Part shown: one piece after another, positions 36,671 to 43,254 of the stretch
How positions within the stretch are numbered: position 1 is the stretch's first letter
How the letters are laid out: each line of letters opens with the position of its first letter
DNA from: Phycisphaerae bacterium
GTDB lineage: Bacteria > Planctomycetota > Phycisphaerae > UBA1845
Length of the DNA stretch: 64,000 nt
Direction of reading: 5' to 3'
Assembly (NCBI GenBank): GCA_963666835.2
Contig: CAXXGO010000006.1
Location: 2,144,001-2,208,000 of the forward strand
The notes under the pieces: model-generated
Told to the model about the DNA's origin: nothing
Database searches by the model: none
The model's input: the letters and a program-made list of their open reading frames with translations, nothing else
Made by a program: the position numbers and the translations under genes

Positions 36671-37942
36671 ATGAATGTGCGTCGTACGACGGCCAGCGCT
36701 GCGATGCGCCGGGGCGGGCAAACGGGTTTTTGTCCTTTGAACAGGGGGGGGGCACGCACTGCCGCCCTTGTGAAAACGGCGCTGGTCGCCGGGCTTGGCG
36801 TGGTTCTCGCCATGCCTAGCACCGCGTGGGCACAGGCGGCTCCGATCTACCTGGGAAGCGATCGGAGCATCGACGGGTGCTACCGGGATGAGATGGGAAA
36901 CCTGCACTGCGGGCCGGCAGTTGCGGACCCCGGTCCCCCGGGGCAATACGATCGGATCGAGCACCTCGCCGATTACTTCGCGTGGGCCGACGTGGATTTC
37001 GCCTTAACCAGCGGTAGTCTCGAAGTTGGCGAGGCGACGATTCATGCGGACCTGACCGGCACGGCGCCGGTGCTGGTGTCGGAGGGCGGGTTGCTCGTGG
37101 CGACGGGCACGGTTACCGCGGTGTTCGAGAGTTGGGGCTCGTCGGTCGACGCGGTCGTGCAGCTTACCGAGGGCTCGGTAACCCGCACGCTGGAGCTTAC
37201 GGTCTCGGTCACTCCGAGCGGGCTGGCAGTCTACGGCACTTTGACGACCACGGCCGGTGACCCTCCGGTGTCCGGGGGCTGGTTGTATTCGCCTGCGGAG
37301 GGCGTCTGGGAGGATCCTACGTCGGAGTCGGGCTTTCACGACGCCGTCGAGGCGATGCTCCACTGTCAGTTGCTGGACCGTCAGAATGACCCTCGGGGTC
37401 TGAGCCTGGGCAACACATTCATTCTGATCGGCAATATCATCGGGCAGGTGGTCACGTCCATCTTGGACATGATGATTCCCTATACACCTCCGCATGCATA
37501 CCAGTGTGACGGTCCCTTGGTCAACGACGGCCCGGGTCAAAGCTGCGAGGGCAGCACACCCCCGTGCATCGATAACCTGTCCAGCGTATACGAGAAGATC
37601 GACAAGATCCCGGACGTCACCCTGGCGTTCAAGAAGTGCATGAAAGGCCGCCTCGGCTGCGGCGGCTCACACTTCCGCCGGACACGAATCGATTGCGCGC
37701 CGGAGAGTGACTGCGGGCCATGCGAACCATTCGGTTTGGCCGGCGGATGCAGTTTGGGTGGATCGCTTATGTGGTATTGCGAGACTAGTGCAGACGAATG
37801 TGATTGTGCCAATGTTGTGTTTCACGAGACGGCACATTCGTGCGGCGCGTTGGATCAGACTGGTGAGACCTCTAGGATTGGCGAGTGGTTTGCGGATCAG
37901 CTAGGCCAGACGAACCCGGGGCTTTGCTGGCCGGTTGATTGA
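36671..37942 (+). CDS. Secreted protein with Cys-rich C-terminal HExxH metallopeptidase-like domain (putative toxin T1)
   Basis: GGGAG RBS; signal ending TAWA|Q; beta-rich N-domain; hydrophobic helix after DPR; 14 Cys in the last ~146 aa; VFHETAHSCG. Confidence 0.8.
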   Translation: MNVRRTTASAAMRRGGQTGFCPLNRGGARTAALVKTALVAGLGVVLAMPSTAWAQAAPIYLGSDRSIDGCYRDEMGNLHCGPAVADPGPPGQYDRIEHLADYFAWADVDFALTSGSLEVGEATIHADLTGTAPVLVSEGGLLVATGTVTAVFESWGSSVDAVVQLTEGSVTRTLELTVSVTPSGLAVYGTLTTTAGDPPVSGGWLYSPAEGVWEDPTSESGFHDAVEAMLHCQLLDRQNDPRGLSLGNTFILIGNIIGQVVTSILDMMIPYTPPHAYQCDGPLVNDGPGQSCEGSTPPCIDNLSSVYEKIDKIPDVTLAFKKCMKGRLGCGGSHFRRTRIDCAPESDCGPCEPFGLAGGCSLGGSLMWYCETSADECDCANVVFHETAHSCGALDQTGETSRIGEWFADQLGQTNPGLCWPVD

Positions 37943-38017
37943 GGGGATCGCCGCAAACAACCAGGGCTTTCATCTGCTTAGGCCTGATGCGGCAACATGC
38001 CTGATGAGGAACGGAAA

Positions 38018-38518
38018 ATGAAAATAGGACGTATGAAGGTCACGGCCATACTACTGGCCTCGGTAACTGTAGGAGTAGCATTCGGTCTCGGATGCTCTCC
38101 TTGCCCGCTTACGTTTGCCGGCATGCTCGTGCGCGGTAGCGTCGAGACGGATAGTCAAGACACACTCGGGGACTTTGTCGTTGACGCATACACGTGGACG
38201 GGCGACACACGGACCGCGTCGGGGTCAACCAGTCTGGGCTATAGTGACAACAACTTTACCTGGCAGGACGGGACCTTTCAGATCTCTCTTGCATCACCTG
38301 ACCGCGTAGCGGTCTGTGACGACCCGTTCTCGGCACAGGTCGAAGTCCCTGAGTACCCGGTGCCGGACGAGGTACACCTCGTGATCACACACGACGGTTG
38401 CGAGTACACCTTCGAGATACAGGTGACCGCAGACATGCTGACCGACTACGACTATCCGGAGTACGACATTCTCCAACTGACCGAGCCGCTGGTAATCGGC
38501 GCGTGCCCGGAAGAATGA
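38018..38518 (+). CDS. Lipoprotein, cassette A (putative immunity/inhibitor)
   Basis: Lipobox FGLG|C; paralogous to B and C (NFTWxDGTFQ, PEYPVPD, VTADMLTDYD, IGACPEE). Confidence 0.85.
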   Translation: MKIGRMKVTAILLASVTVGVAFGLGCSPCPLTFAGMLVRGSVETDSQDTLGDFVVDAYTWTGDTRTASGSTSLGYSDNNFTWQDGTFQISLASPDRVAVCDDPFSAQVEVPEYPVPDEVHLVITHDGCEYTFEIQVTADMLTDYDYPEYDILQLTEPLVIGACPEE

Positions 38519-38536
38519 CGAGGATATGTCCCGGCC

Positions 38537-38678
38537 GGGTGCCCCATCCATGCCGGCGTTTTGCGCGCTGGAATCGCCGCATCGCCCGCCGGCATGGGTG
38601 GGGGACGGATTGGAGTCCTGAAGTTGCGTCGGTCGACAAACGAGAGCTTCCACAAAGGCGCGTGTTGCGTTAGAGGTC
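38537..38678 (+). repeat. Family W palindrome plus a 73-bp segment repeated after cassette C
   Basis: GGGTGCCCCATCCATGCCGGC...GCCGGCATGGGTGGG; 38606-38678 equals 40623-40695 with 2 mismatches. Confidence 0.9.
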
Positions 38679-38679
38679 T

Positions 38680-38832
38680 CAATGCGATTGCGCGAATACA
38701 GTCTTTCATGAAATGGCCCATTCGTGCGGCGCGTTGGATCAGACCGGAGATTCGCGTCGGATTGCTGACTTCTTTGAAGACGAGTTTGAGACGGCAAACC
38801 CCATTGCTTGCTATCAAACGAAGCGACCCTGA
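38680..38832 (+). pseudogene. Orphan, start-less C-terminal fragment of a second peptidase allele (T2 tip)
   Basis: Translates QCDCANTVFHEMAHSCGALDQTGDSRRIADFFEDEFETANPIACYQTKRP*; ungapped, 27/48 identical to the T1 C-terminus; in-frame TAG at 38671. Confidence 0.92.
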
Positions 38833-38900
38833 GGGAAGAACTTGGGAGTATAACAATGTGTGCTAGAAGATCCCATAACACGCCGATCTGGAAACAAGCG

Positions 38901-39404
38901 ATGAAGAACACGATTCGAATAGAAGTAGCGGTCATGCTCACAGTCGCAGGTGTCATCGGTCTTGCGTCCGGCGTGGCGCGTTCTCCTTGCCCGCTTACTT
39001 CGGCAACCATGGTGGTTCGAGGGAAGGTCGAGGCAGACATCGCGACTACGTTGGGAACTTTCGACGTCGACGCGTACACGTGGACGGTTGGCGAACAGAC
39101 GGGGGCAGGGTCAACTCGCCATTCGTTGAGTGAGCAGAACTTCACCTGGGAGGACGGCACCTTCCAAGCCTTTCTCGGGGCCAGCGGGTCCGTCAGTGTA
39201 TGTTCCGACCCGTTTTCCGAGGAGGTTGAGGTCCCGGAGTATCCGGTTCCAGATGAAGTGCGCTTGGTCGTTATTCACGGCGGTTGCGAGCATACGTTCG
39301 AGATAACGGTAACGGCCGACATGCTCACGGACTACGACTTTCCGGAGTACGACATTGTCCAATTGACCAAGCCGTTGGTAATCGGAGCGTGCCCGGAGGA
39401 GTGA
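38901..39404 (+). CDS. Exported protein, cassette B (lipobox Cys replaced by Arg)
   Basis: Paralogue of A and C; SGVA-R-SPCP where A has GLG-C-SPCP. Confidence 0.85.
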   Translation: MKNTIRIEVAVMLTVAGVIGLASGVARSPCPLTSATMVVRGKVEADIATTLGTFDVDAYTWTVGEQTGAGSTRHSLSEQNFTWEDGTFQAFLGASGSVSVCSDPFSEEVEVPEYPVPDEVRLVVIHGGCEHTFEITVTADMLTDYDFPEYDIVQLTKPLVIGACPEE

Positions 39405-39423
39405 CAAGAATATGTCCCGGCCT

Positions 39424-39960
39424 GGTGCCCCATCCATGCCGGCGTTTGGCATGCGGGGTGCGGGGTGCCCCATTCATGCCGGCGTCTGCTGGGCTGGAAT
39501 AGCCGCATCGCCCCGCGGCCGGCATGGGTGGGGGGCGGATTGCGTAGGGCACGGTCGAGGTACGAGACCTGCCGAGATGTCGCGTGTCGCGCGAATCCCT
39601 AACCGCGTCACGCGGCCACCCGGTGAACGGTCCCGAAGGGACTGTGGGCACGTAGCCACGGGTGGAGCGAAGCGGAACCCGTGGGGTGATTCGGCCCCCA
39701 TACGCTCCCGTCCCGAAGGGCCGGAGGAGGATTAACGGCATGACGCAAAGAACAACGGCAGGTCTCGTGCCTCGATGCTGCCCTACAGAATGCTCTGGGC
39801 GGGTTGCGCAAGCCGAACGTCGTTGTGCAACCCACTTCGGGGTTGGTGCGGAAGGGGGCTTTGTGCCCCAGGGTGGCACTTCACGGCTGCGCCGCTTTGT
39901 TTACCCTGGGCTTCGTTGTTTAACGCCTTCGGCGTACGTTCAAAAGGCACGAGACCTGCC
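39424..39960. repeat. Nested repeat mosaic: W (two heads), X(+ 39544), Y (39606-39786, ending in X- 39757), Z(- 39821-39937), partial X (39945)
   Basis: Direct comparison with copies at 7473, 8721, 15985, 16185, 38537, 40549-40986. Confidence 0.88.
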
Positions 39961-40012
39961 GCGAAAGCGCGCGTCACGCAGAGGATTAAGCATGCATTCT
40001 GAGGATCTGGCA

Positions 40013-40513
40013 ATGAGGACAACGAATCGAATAGAAGCCGCGGTAATGGTCGTGGTTATAGGTGCCATCGGGCTGGTGTCCGGTTCAGCTTGTTGCTCGT
40101 GCCCGCTCATCTCGGCGCAGATGCTGGTTCGCGGCAGAGTCGAGGCGGATGCCACGATCACATTGGGGAGTTTCGAGGTCAGCGCCTACACCCGGACTGC
40201 CGGCGAATGGACCGGAGCAGGGGCGACGGGCCATTCGTTGAGCGAGCAGAACTTCACCTGGCAGGACGGGACCTTTCAGGTCCACCTTGGGGGCGGCGAG
40301 CTCGGCAGATGTCCCAATCCATTCTCTTCGGAGGTTGTGGTTCCCGAATACCCCGTGCCGGATAAAGTCCACTTAGTGGTTACGCACGACGGCTGCGAGC
40401 AGACCTTCGAGATACCTGTAACGGCCGACATGCTCACGGACTACGACTTTCCGGAGTACGACATTGTCCAATTGACCAAGCCGTTGGTAATCGGAGCGTG
40501 CCCGGAGGAGTGA
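40013..40513 (+). CDS. Lipoprotein, cassette C
   Basis: Lipobox SGSA|C; paralogue of A and B; last 100 bp identical to B. Confidence 0.85.
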   Translation: MRTTNRIEAAVMVVVIGAIGLVSGSACCSCPLISAQMLVRGRVEADATITLGSFEVSAYTRTAGEWTGAGATGHSLSEQNFTWQDGTFQVHLGGGELGRCPNPFSSEVVVPEYPVPDKVHLVVTHDGCEQTFEIPVTADMLTDYDFPEYDIVQLTKPLVIGACPEE

Positions 40514-40548
40514 CAAGGATATGGCCCAACCGCGTGCCCTATTCCGGC

Positions 40549-40986
40549 CGGACGCCCCATCCATGACGGCGGCTGCTGGGCTGAAACAGCCGTATCGCCC
40601 GGCCGCCGGCATGGGTGGGGGGCGGATTGGAGTCCTGAAGTTGCGTCGGTCGACAAACGACAGCTTCCACAAGGGCGCGTGTTGCGTTAGAGGTCGCGGC
40701 AGGTCTCGTACCTCGACCGTGCCCTACAGGGTGCCGGGTGCCATGGTCCACGCTTGCGTGGCCATGAAGGTCGTTTGGGTCGGGCGAGCGCAAGGGTGTC
40801 AACGTCGTCACGTGGCCACCCGGTGAACGGTCCCGAAGGAACTGTGGGCACGTAGCCACGGGTGGAGCGAAGCGGGACCCGTGGGGTGATTCGGGCCCCA
40901 CCTACTCCCGTCCCGGAGGGCCGGCGGAGGATTAACCGCATGACGAAAAGACCAACGACAGGTCTCGTGCCTCGACCATGCCCTAC
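40549..40986. repeat. Repeat mosaic: W, 73-bp segment, X(- 40698), Y (40806-40986, ending in X- 40957)
   Basis: Y is a 181-bp near copy of 39606-39786 containing GTAG-CCACGGG-N-CCCGTGG flanked by GTCCCG hairpins. Confidence 0.88.
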
Positions 40987-41085
40987 GGGGCGGGGTTGAA
41001 TTGACGTTCTGCGCGCATAGACCAGCAAGGCCCCGGCCGCAGCCGCAAGCCCGATGGAGGGATATCCTGTATCTCCGACGGTCTG

Positions 41086-41292
41086 CTACGAGTCGGTCTC
41101 GGTGGCGTCTTCGGTGGCGGCTGCTACCTGGGTCGCCAGGGACGCCAGGAAGTCGTTTAGGAAGTAATCTTTGGTACCGGCGACCAGAGCTTCTTTCAGC
41201 CGGGTCTCGCACCCCCCGAACATGGTACCGCCGCCCAGGGTCACCGCGAGCATAGTTGCCACTTTCGTGCGTATTCTTGCAGTGCGCTTCAT
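41086..41292 (-). CDS. Small lipoprotein (68 aa)
   Basis: Basic N-terminus, TMFGG|C lipobox, short amphipathic helix, acidic tail. Confidence 0.7.
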   Translation of the reverse strand: MKRTARIRTKVATMLAVTLGGGTMFGGCETRLKEALVAGTKDYFLNDFLASLATQVAAATEDATETDS

Positions 41293-41397
41293 GTGTCGCT
41301 TCCGTTGGGGAGAAGAACCAAGCTCACAGACGCAGCCGAGAGGGACTCCCGCATGCGCAATCTGTAACGTCTGCAGGGTGGGTCCGTGCCCGGCTCG

Positions 41398-42141
41398 CTA
41401 TTCGTCTGAAGTCTGAGCCTGGGATTCGAGGAACTCCTGGTAATTCACGAACGTGTTAGGCCCGGTGAAGATCGAGGGCTGTTCCGCTCCCGGTAGCAGG
41501 AACGATTCCAGCCGGACCCCGCCGGCGACCCGCGTGTCCGCGATGGCGCGGAAGATAACGGTATCTCCGCAATTGAAGTTACTTGGTCCTTCGTCGGGAA
41601 CGCGCGACAGAGGACTGAGAGTCTCGGCGGAGATTCCTACGCCGCCTGGCTGACCCACGTCTCCACCGCCAACGAAGACCGCGGTGTCGCTCGACAAGAG
41701 GTTCTCCCCCAACCCCACCCGGTTGATTGCGGAAGTTGAGCAGGGAAACAAGGTGCTCAGTTCGTTCGCCGGCGACGCTGCTCTGGTTTGGATGCGGACG
41801 GATTCGATGGTCGGCTCTGTGACGATTACGCCGTCGTCGATTACCGGCTCGCCATCGTCATCTAGCCTGACCGATTCTCGTTCGATAGCAACAACGAACC
41901 GTGCGTTCTGCCCGGTATCATTGACGCACCGGACCAGCACGAAATCTGCGCGAGGTCCCGGCGTGAGCGGTACGTATCCGCCGGACGTCGTGGTGACGAA
42001 CGCAGGATTGAACAGGGTACCGCTGTCGCATGCGACCGCCAGCAGCAGGCCACCGATCGCCGAAGCGATCAGCATCGATTGGGTGAACTTCCTGGTGCCC
42101 ACGAGAGTGATCCTCCAATCCCCGGACCGGGGAATCGCCAA
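41398..42141 (-). CDS. Lipoprotein of unknown function
   Basis: LLAVA|CDSGTLFNPAFV; start uncertain. Confidence 0.75.
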   Translation of the reverse strand: MAIPRSGDWRITLVGTRKFTQSMLIASAIGGLLLAVACDSGTLFNPAFVTTTSGGYVPLTPGPRADFVLVRCVNDTGQNARFVVAIERESVRLDDDGEPVIDDGVIVTEPTIESVRIQTRAASPANELSTLFPCSTSAINRVGLGENLLSSDTAVFVGGGDVGQPGGVGISAETLSPLSRVPDEGPSNFNCGDTVIFRAIADTRVAGGVRLESFLLPGAEQPSIFTGPNTFVNYQEFLESQAQTSDE

Positions 42142-42157
42142 CGCAATAGTACTCGAC

Positions 42158-42973
42158 CTATTTGATTTCCGTCACGAAGCGGTAGCGACCGCCGACTCCC
42201 GCCACCGTGGACTCGTCGTCCCTATCGTAAGACGGCGAATCATCTTCTCCGGTAAGGAACGGAACGCTGAACTCACCCTCCAACACGAACGCCACCACCG
42301 AGCCACAGTACGGTGAAACCGGTGCCGGGGTGTCACCCGGGGCGAAGTTGCGCTGCAAGGTCACATAATTGTCCTCGTCTACATCATCCACCTCCAGCGC
42401 CTGGAACCCCGGGGCGATTCGCTCGCGAATCTCAAACTCCGTGGTAACTGCTCCACCCACTCCCGTCGCCTCGACCAGCTCGTACACCGCTATCTCAACC
42501 GGAATGTACACTTCAATCGGGCGATCCGGATCCAACTCGACTTGGACGACGTCGCACGGGAACACGACATTCGAGACCACTGACTCGGCGAAATCCGTCA
42601 CCTCGACCAGCTCGGCCGTTCCTACGGCGTATTGGAAGCTGGCTTCGGTGCCGTCCTGGTAGGTTACCAGTAGTCGCATGCGGACTGCAGGCTTGATGGA
42701 GTCCGAAGCGATACTGGACAGCCCATCGAGATTGGCGAGCATGTACGCGAGCGTCTGCTCCTCGATTTGGGCGTTGTTAATGAAGGTTACGATGATGGGC
42801 CCCGTACCGTTATCGATGCTTGCCAGGGCGTTCGCAGTCTCCGCGTCCAACAACGTTACAAACGCGGGGTTCAGCGAATCGCACCCCAAAAAAGGGATGG
42901 TAACGCATGCGGAAATCAGTAGGACGCGCGCGATCGCCGGCCGCATGTTTCTAATGCCAGAAAAAACAGTCAC
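42158..42973 (-). CDS. Lipoprotein of unknown function, distant paralogue of the previous gene
   Basis: PFLG|CDSLNPAFV; shared FPC and CG motifs; GTG start after AGAGGG (alternative ATG at 42946). Confidence 0.75.
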   Translation of the reverse strand: MTVFSGIRNMRPAIARVLLISACVTIPFLGCDSLNPAFVTLLDAETANALASIDNGTGPIIVTFINNAQIEEQTLAYMLANLDGLSSIASDSIKPAVRMRLLVTYQDGTEASFQYAVGTAELVEVTDFAESVVSNVVFPCDVVQVELDPDRPIEVYIPVEIAVYELVEATGVGGAVTTEFEIRERIAPGFQALEVDDVDEDNYVTLQRNFAPGDTPAPVSPYCGSVVAFVLEGEFSVPFLTGEDDSPSYDRDDESTVAGVGGRYRFVTEIK

Positions 42974-43254
42974 GAGTGAACCCTCTTTCTGTTTACCAGT
43001 CTGCAGGAGCCACCAACGGCTCGCGCCACGCAGACGCAGAGCACAGCTTCCCCCAACGCACGTAGTATCTCTCACCAGAATGTCAGGTCAACCCCTGGAG
43101 CGGCAACACAACGCCGCGACCTTGAGAATAGACCTTGAAGATGCTCCGGCGCTCGGGGGGGCGGCGGTGGCTGCGGAGCCCGATTGATTTTCCGGGCCAC
43201 AAGCCCTACAAGACTGCTCGGAGGACACGAGAATCTCGTTTTAGGAGCAGGTAA

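Follow-up and report, generated by a model that had tools for sequence, protein, structure and literature searches.

A predicted Sec-exported zinc-metallopeptidase toxin and its linked lipoprotein family in a Phycisphaerae genome

In the survey of polymorphic toxins PMC3482391, export by a signal peptide is treated as a default class, with lineage-specific N-domains such as MAFB-N, and start-less mafB-CT cassettes are described together with mafI genes (PMC4287609). The former source also lists small Wss1-like metallopeptidase tips on Rhs proteins, some of them planctomycete, whose immunity column holds a '-'. VgrG2b and Tpe1, both HExxH effectors, exert their toxicity in the periplasm, where envelope proteins, among them lipoproteins, neutralise them (PMC6899460), and the KLIKK peptidases of Tannerella forsythia have linked lipoprotein inhibitors, the potempins (PMC9890683); these papers are cited throughout from partial texts. 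We analysed a stretch of 64,000 nucleotides (the window) of a Phycisphaerae bacterium, corresponding to positions 2144001-2208000 of contig C6 of the host genome (G000), in which the gene of a cysteine-rich HExxH protein (T1) is followed by a lipoprotein gene (A) and its paralogues B and C. We put at roughly 0.7 the probability that T, exported by Sec, and A make up a polymorphic toxin system, in which a C-terminal zinc-metallopeptidase domain (the tip) would act on envelope proteins of related cells, the A lipoproteins would be envelope inhibitors, and B and C would serve against neighbours.

The window does carry T1, A, the tip without a start, B and C in this order on one strand, together with the repeats, which confirms the anatomy given in a preliminary description of this DNA (T1, A, a copy of the T1 end that lacks a start, B, C and repeats). 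Two further T+A+A loci are found in the host genome (C6:1777450-1774910 and C6:833006-830439) in unrelated surroundings, and their T genes are referred to as T2 and T3. The features of the window locus are as follows, where REP-like (for repetitive extragenic palindromic) is our presumed label for the repeats.

36671..37942, + strand: T1, with signal peptide, N-domain and Cys-rich zincin-type tip; 423 amino acids from ATG 36671 or 390 amino acids from GTG 36770
36744..36752, + strand: G9 run in the T1 leader; G15 in T2, and G9 with one neighbouring base fewer in T3
36770..36832, + strand: likely Sec signal peptide, residues 34-54, by eye and hydropathy
36944..37474, + strand: lineage-restricted N-domain, predicted beta-meander sheet plus helices, with a terminal conserved amphipathic helix (residues 246-266)
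37475..37939, + strand: tip domain with 14 Cys and the zinc motif H385-E386-x-x-H389-x-x-G392-x-x-D395; HExxH at 37823-37837
37687, + strand: breakpoint at codon 339, end of the 933-bp T1/T2 identity
37997..38518, + strand: A, lipobox lipoprotein, predicted transthyretin-like beta-sandwich; putative cognate immunity protein or inhibitor
38534..38678, no strand: REP-like hairpin and a 79-nucleotide element (which recurs after C), in the place of the orphan tip's 5' part
38680..38832, + strand: start-less tip remnant of 50 codons, with a HEMAH motif and 77% identity to the T3 tip
38901..39404, + strand: B, an A paralogue with the hydrophobic signal kept and the lipobox Cys lost
39405..40012, no strand: mosaic of genome-wide REP-like repeats between B and C
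40013..40513, + strand: C, an A paralogue with a lipobox and no tip upstream
40514..40993, no strand: more REP-like repeats after C

The position of A behind the tip is fixed. Tip profile matches occur in 15/100 genomes of the host's family, where 28 matches correspond to 27 sites, 24 of which contain the HExxH region. An A gene is next downstream at every one of these 24 sites, with an insertion sequence intervening once, as expected from the fixed T-then-A order that was to be checked by neighbourhood analysis; 13 of the 24 sites are from genomes outside the building of profiles A2 and A3. The remaining three sites are short fragments with no A downstream. The tip was not found among 378 other genomes of the class and 400 of the phylum, with only nine candidates scored per genome. 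Among 1.84 billion representatives the tip matches comprise 45 clusters, and the named records holding T relatives (13 loci) are Phycisphaerae or Planctomycetota metagenome-assembled genomes. Array layouts include T-A-A-A in G021, T-A-tip-A-A in G451, T-A-A-A-remnant-A in G480 and three successive tip-A units in G012, and start-less tip cassettes are found in G012, G451, G465 and G480 besides the window remnant.

The strongest evidence for a toxin tip over a housekeeping protease comes from Rhs carriers. The tip ends an Rhs core in G022 and G460, both followed by A, and in three more proteins, known without genomic context, an Rhs core is likewise joined to the tip, with a Pretoxin HINT domain in one of these; all five are above the TIGR03696 cut-off. 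G022 was found with T1 alone at E 9e-7, and its tip then entered the profile that found the others. A search for longer proteins gave 28 matches of up to 630 amino acids, to which Pfam labels add only Rhs proteins of the G022 type and small Cys-rich repeats, which is weak evidence. The T carrier varies at its front end too, because longer T homologues (P0035, P0036, P0040, P0041 and P0046) bear extra N-terminal modules (Cys-rich repeats and, by eye, dockerin-like segments).

The T1 and T2 genes of the host share 933 bp without a difference, up to window base 37686, beyond which identity falls to 58-75%. This break marks recombination (either a swap of the tip or conversion of the front part): the synonymous difference (pS) between T1 and T2 jumps at codon 339 from 0.02 (residues 269-339) to 0.78 (residues 340-423). 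The break falls just past FKKCMKGRxGCGGS, the most conserved motif (conservation of 0.83 over residues 315-334), at which several start-less modules of relatives start. The host alleles amount to three complete tips and one remnant, with seven putative A-family antidotes. Contig C1 gave some weak matches to T1 (E 0.03-0.7), which we dropped after inspection.

The T1 protein contains 18 Cys, 14 of them within residues 279-419, and HETAH at residues 385-389. The tip is predicted to be a minimal zincin with the pattern HExxHxxGxxD/H: HExxH sits on a predicted helix, and the D/H is at +6 past the second His in 58/59 alignment rows. The catalytic motif is retained in 57-60 of the 60 tip rows, and is altered to QExxH in G007 and to HKxxH in G012. 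A DPxG-like word in the T1 linker, considered as an Rhs-type cleavage site, is not conserved among homologues. The true start of T1 is probably GTG 36770, giving 390 residues with a 21-residue signal peptide, since the frame from the upstream ATG does not survive the G-run in T2 and T3, where it ends in a stop that overlaps the GTG matching T1 codon 34. The top hydropathy window of T1 is residues 30-49, and homologue N-termini are also hydrophobic. Only three G/C runs of at least 12 occur genome-wide, and the leader G-runs have lengths of 9 (T1), 15 (T2) and 9 (T3). Phase variation or translational coupling of the 35-codon leader would be possible roles of the run. The length differences among contigs are explicable by T2 and T3, and the downstream GTG renders a frame break harmless. 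In T3 (L002, at about C6:832700) an in-frame REP-like element lies in the N-domain, replacing part of a strand, and P0006, a near-identical protein from another assembly, shares this insertion.

A, B and C are 65-75% identical to one another over the mature part, and C shares 89% identity with the second A gene of locus 2. A is variable over its first 80 residues. A lipobox is present in 39 of 45 A-family proteins. The reading frames of B and C are intact, with a ratio of nonsynonymous to synonymous change (dN/dS) well under 1, and no positive selection was seen. A is modelled as a transthyretin-like lipoprotein, and in structure comparison it resembles beta-sandwiches of adhesin and pilotin type with weak Z scores. 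In G004 (L022 7575-8519) a fused two-domain A protein follows a T gene that carries an in-frame stop. In G268 (L054 7701-8276) an open reading frame directly behind a solo A gene encodes what we take to resemble a REP-associated tyrosine transposase. In G386 (L127, C6; 1235-4182), two tandem Rhs cores bear a small Cys-rich tip and a different, metzincin-type tip, and an A-family gene follows.

Two points of the preliminary description need correction. The orphan tip of the window (38680-38832) is a decayed remnant of 50 codons rather than an intact cassette; it covers only T1 residues ~376-423, with the front two thirds of the tip missing. It is 77% identical to the T3 tip and 56% to that of the adjoining T1, with near-saturated synonymous sites. 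The repeats do not belong to the system, most of them being genome-wide REP-like elements: 815 near-full-length copies of the 35-nucleotide unit found at 39543-39577 occur in the genome, as do 60 of the hairpin found at 38534-38616, and we reject the view that the repeats are specific to the system. A search of Rfam returned nothing.

Two sequencing runs of a single sample, possibly the one from which the assembly came, yielded short-read contigs that agree fully with 37657-38479 and 38614-39292. Promoter and terminator scans gave chance-level signals only. Upstream of T the genes vary by locus, feoA at T1 and unrelated ones elsewhere. Right after the array, at 41086-43075 on the - strand, three open reading frames (68, 247 and 305 amino acids) have signal- or lipobox-like N-termini and no Pfam match. 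The host genome contains 22 Rhs cores, two matches to type VI secretion system (T6SS) sheaths and five secretins. One T6SS sheath gene (VipB/TssC family) is located at C6:2117224-2118129, about 27 kb before the window. The Rhs cores are grouped in five clusters (C6:1061183-1077158, C1:1472533-1483274, C5:42694-45213, C5:127745-134970 and C6:367011-382677), which are probably arrays of orphan Rhs tips.

Neither family was recognised in the preliminary description, and the searches of Pfam, NCBIfam and PDB sequences agree. T1, A, B and C have no informative match in Pfam, NCBIfam or PADLOC, and T1 matches no Pfam family at E up to 1 and nothing in NCBIfam. Among PDB sequences there is no match for T (profile A5), and the only match for A is weak, to a dioxygenase at E 0.12. 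Foldseek returned nothing for T at E up to 0.001. All ESM Atlas scores are below 0.9; the nearest named clusters to T1 are zincins at 0.75-0.77, which serve as leads only. In the literature searched, which did not extend to subscription papers and supplements, we found no prior description of the T or A families and no report of such a system in Phycisphaerae. The comparative evidence supports the system well, and we regard tip, carrier and putative immunity proteins as new families, with a polymorphism that is allelic rather than at the level of domains.

In the mechanism that we propose, T would be exported by Sec, would form its disulfides in the periplasm, and would leave the cell via a secretin route or in vesicles. 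The predicted zinc-metallopeptidase tip would then cut envelope proteins of related cells, and A would bind the tip and block its active site in the envelope of the producer. The first A would guard against the cell's own tip, with the extra copies B and C kept against the tips of neighbours.

A toxin/immunity cassette, as first suggested for this locus, is supported by A following T at 24/24 sites, by orphan tip+A modules elsewhere, by the breakpoint inside T, by tips on Rhs cores with A behind, by lipoboxes in 39/45 A proteins and by the lack of a match to the known families that were searched. Several observations weigh against it. A is found in 30/100 family genomes, 14 with a tip and 16 without, and solo A genes occur also in a neighbouring family. 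Seen from the A side the linkage is looser: of 68 A matches, 44 fall within tip loci, 20 are solo, one is behind the unrelated Rhs HExxH tip of G386, and three are weak and uninspected. The N-domain, present in 11/100 genomes, carries only this tip family, bar one truncated gene and one weak, partial, uninspected match, and no fusion of it to unrelated toxin domains was found in the genomes searched. For the part played by A as an allele-specific antidote, two further points are unfavourable: B has lost the lipobox Cys with its hydrophobic signal retained, and between genomes, with the Rhs forms removed, tip and A distances give a rho of 0.06 (p 0.33). Within genomes the distances correlate with a rho of 0.88 (11 non-independent pairs; the comparison used 22 pairs and excluded G004, G012:C162 and the window remnant), and B is not closest to the partner of T3 though the remnant is closest to T3. 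Allele-specific pairing of tip and A is only a hypothesis, because co-duplication alone could yield the correlation within genomes.

The N-domain with its single tip family, the many solo A genes, the signal peptide, the lack of delivery genes nearby and the precedent of the potempins (PMC9890683) would all suit a secreted housekeeping, nutritional or matrix-processing peptidase, with A as a self-protecting inhibitor and the extra copies as mere duplicates. We judge this unlikely in view of the tip on Rhs cores and on one HINT protein, the start-less tip+A modules, the sharp exchange of the tip between T1 and T2, and the patchy presence in 15/100 genomes. It is quite improbable that T and A are a non-lethal ligand and receptor for kin recognition, the peptidase fold serving as a variable recognition surface or a signal releaser: one family varying by alleles, the altered zinc motifs of G007 and G012 and the weak likeness of A to adhesin- and pilotin-type sandwiches fit such a pair, but the catalytic motif is retained in nearly all rows (57-60/60), the tip is fused to Rhs, and the loci read show no linked signalling genes. 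If REP-like repeats had driven local tandem duplication and decay, with T1 and A alone mattering and the rest being debris, this would account for the repeat-flanked remnant of 50 codons, the lost Cys of B and the repeat inside the T3 coding sequence; yet the remnant is nearer to T3 (77%) than to the adjoining T1 (56%) and near-saturated at synonymous sites, B and C have kept whole reading frames and a dN/dS well below 1, and multi-A arrays occur in many other genera, so that we give this account very little credence.

If the toxin/immunity reading is true, the biology of polymorphic toxins gains a carrier domain and one family each of toxins and immunity proteins, all in Phycisphaerae. The metallopeptidase tips in the consulted portion of PMC3482391 have no listed immunity partners, whereas the tip described here has a constant partner that moves with it across two carriers. 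The three tip alleles and seven antidote alleles of one genome are a ready matrix for the evolution of toxin-antidote specificity, and A may be a new scaffold for metallopeptidase inhibitors. A bolder version, doubtful at present, is an arms race within one peptidase family: a planctomycete-only carrier would export a disulfide-stapled zincin with no injection machinery, its core swapped as an allele, and A would be a new class of transthyretin-fold inhibitor of metallopeptidases, kept as a store of allele-specific antidotes that also serves against unrelated Rhs zincins.

Comparison with known systems places these features as follows. The aspzincins (M35: AsaP1, GfMEP and deuterolysin) and Wss1/WLM differ from the T tip, with 10-14% identity and no Pfam match, and the tip is far richer in Cys with a shorter HExxHxxGxxD/H motif. 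Like Tox-MPTase1-5 and Tox-HopH1, as far as they are covered in the partial text of PMC3482391, the tip is a small, predicted Wss1-like zincin found on Rhs proteins; unlike them it has a fixed partner (theirs is given as '-') and a mostly non-Rhs carrier. None of 22 tips matches a Pfam Tox-MPTase model at E up to 10. Pfam presumably holds some of the Tox-MPTase and Tox-HopH1 models. The KLIKK peptidases and potempins share with T and A a secreted peptidase and a genetically linked, beta-rich lipoprotein inhibitor. Potempin genes, however, are upstream of the peptidase and their products have OB (oligonucleotide/oligosaccharide-binding) or up-and-down barrel folds, a description to which A does not answer, and orphan tips and Rhs fusions are not mentioned in the part of PMC9890683 consulted.

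The pairs VgrG2b-Cter/PA0261 and Tpe1/Tpi1 resemble T and A in combining an HExxH zinc peptidase with an invariably adjacent gene for a Cys-containing envelope or lipoprotein immunity protein, and in periplasmic action, which is predicted for T (PMC6899460, in part). T differs in having a signal peptide, in not being fused to VgrG, in being probably disulfide-rich and in having orphan cassettes, and none of the loci read has a vgrG next to T; the 50 structural matches listed for T do not include VgrG2b, and there is no PDB sequence match. With MafB/MafI, T and A share a signal peptide, a lineage-restricted N-domain, a variable C-terminus and a (for A, putative) immunity gene directly downstream, as well as start-less cassettes beginning at a conserved motif and several loci per genome (PMC4287609 and PMC3482391, each in part). 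The preliminary description held that the delivery of T would be unlike the known classes, whereas a signal peptide, a lineage-restricted N-domain and a C-terminal toxin are, in the same partial sources, the hallmarks of the MafB/Sec class. In contrast to MafB, T has no DUF1020 match and no mafA-like upstream gene in the loci read, the variation of its tip is among alleles within a single peptidase family and not among unrelated toxin domains, and its presumed immunity proteins all belong to one envelope lipoprotein family. In sum, the system is not a member of MafB, and by analogy it appears MafB-like in layout and Tpe1/Tpi1-like in chemistry.

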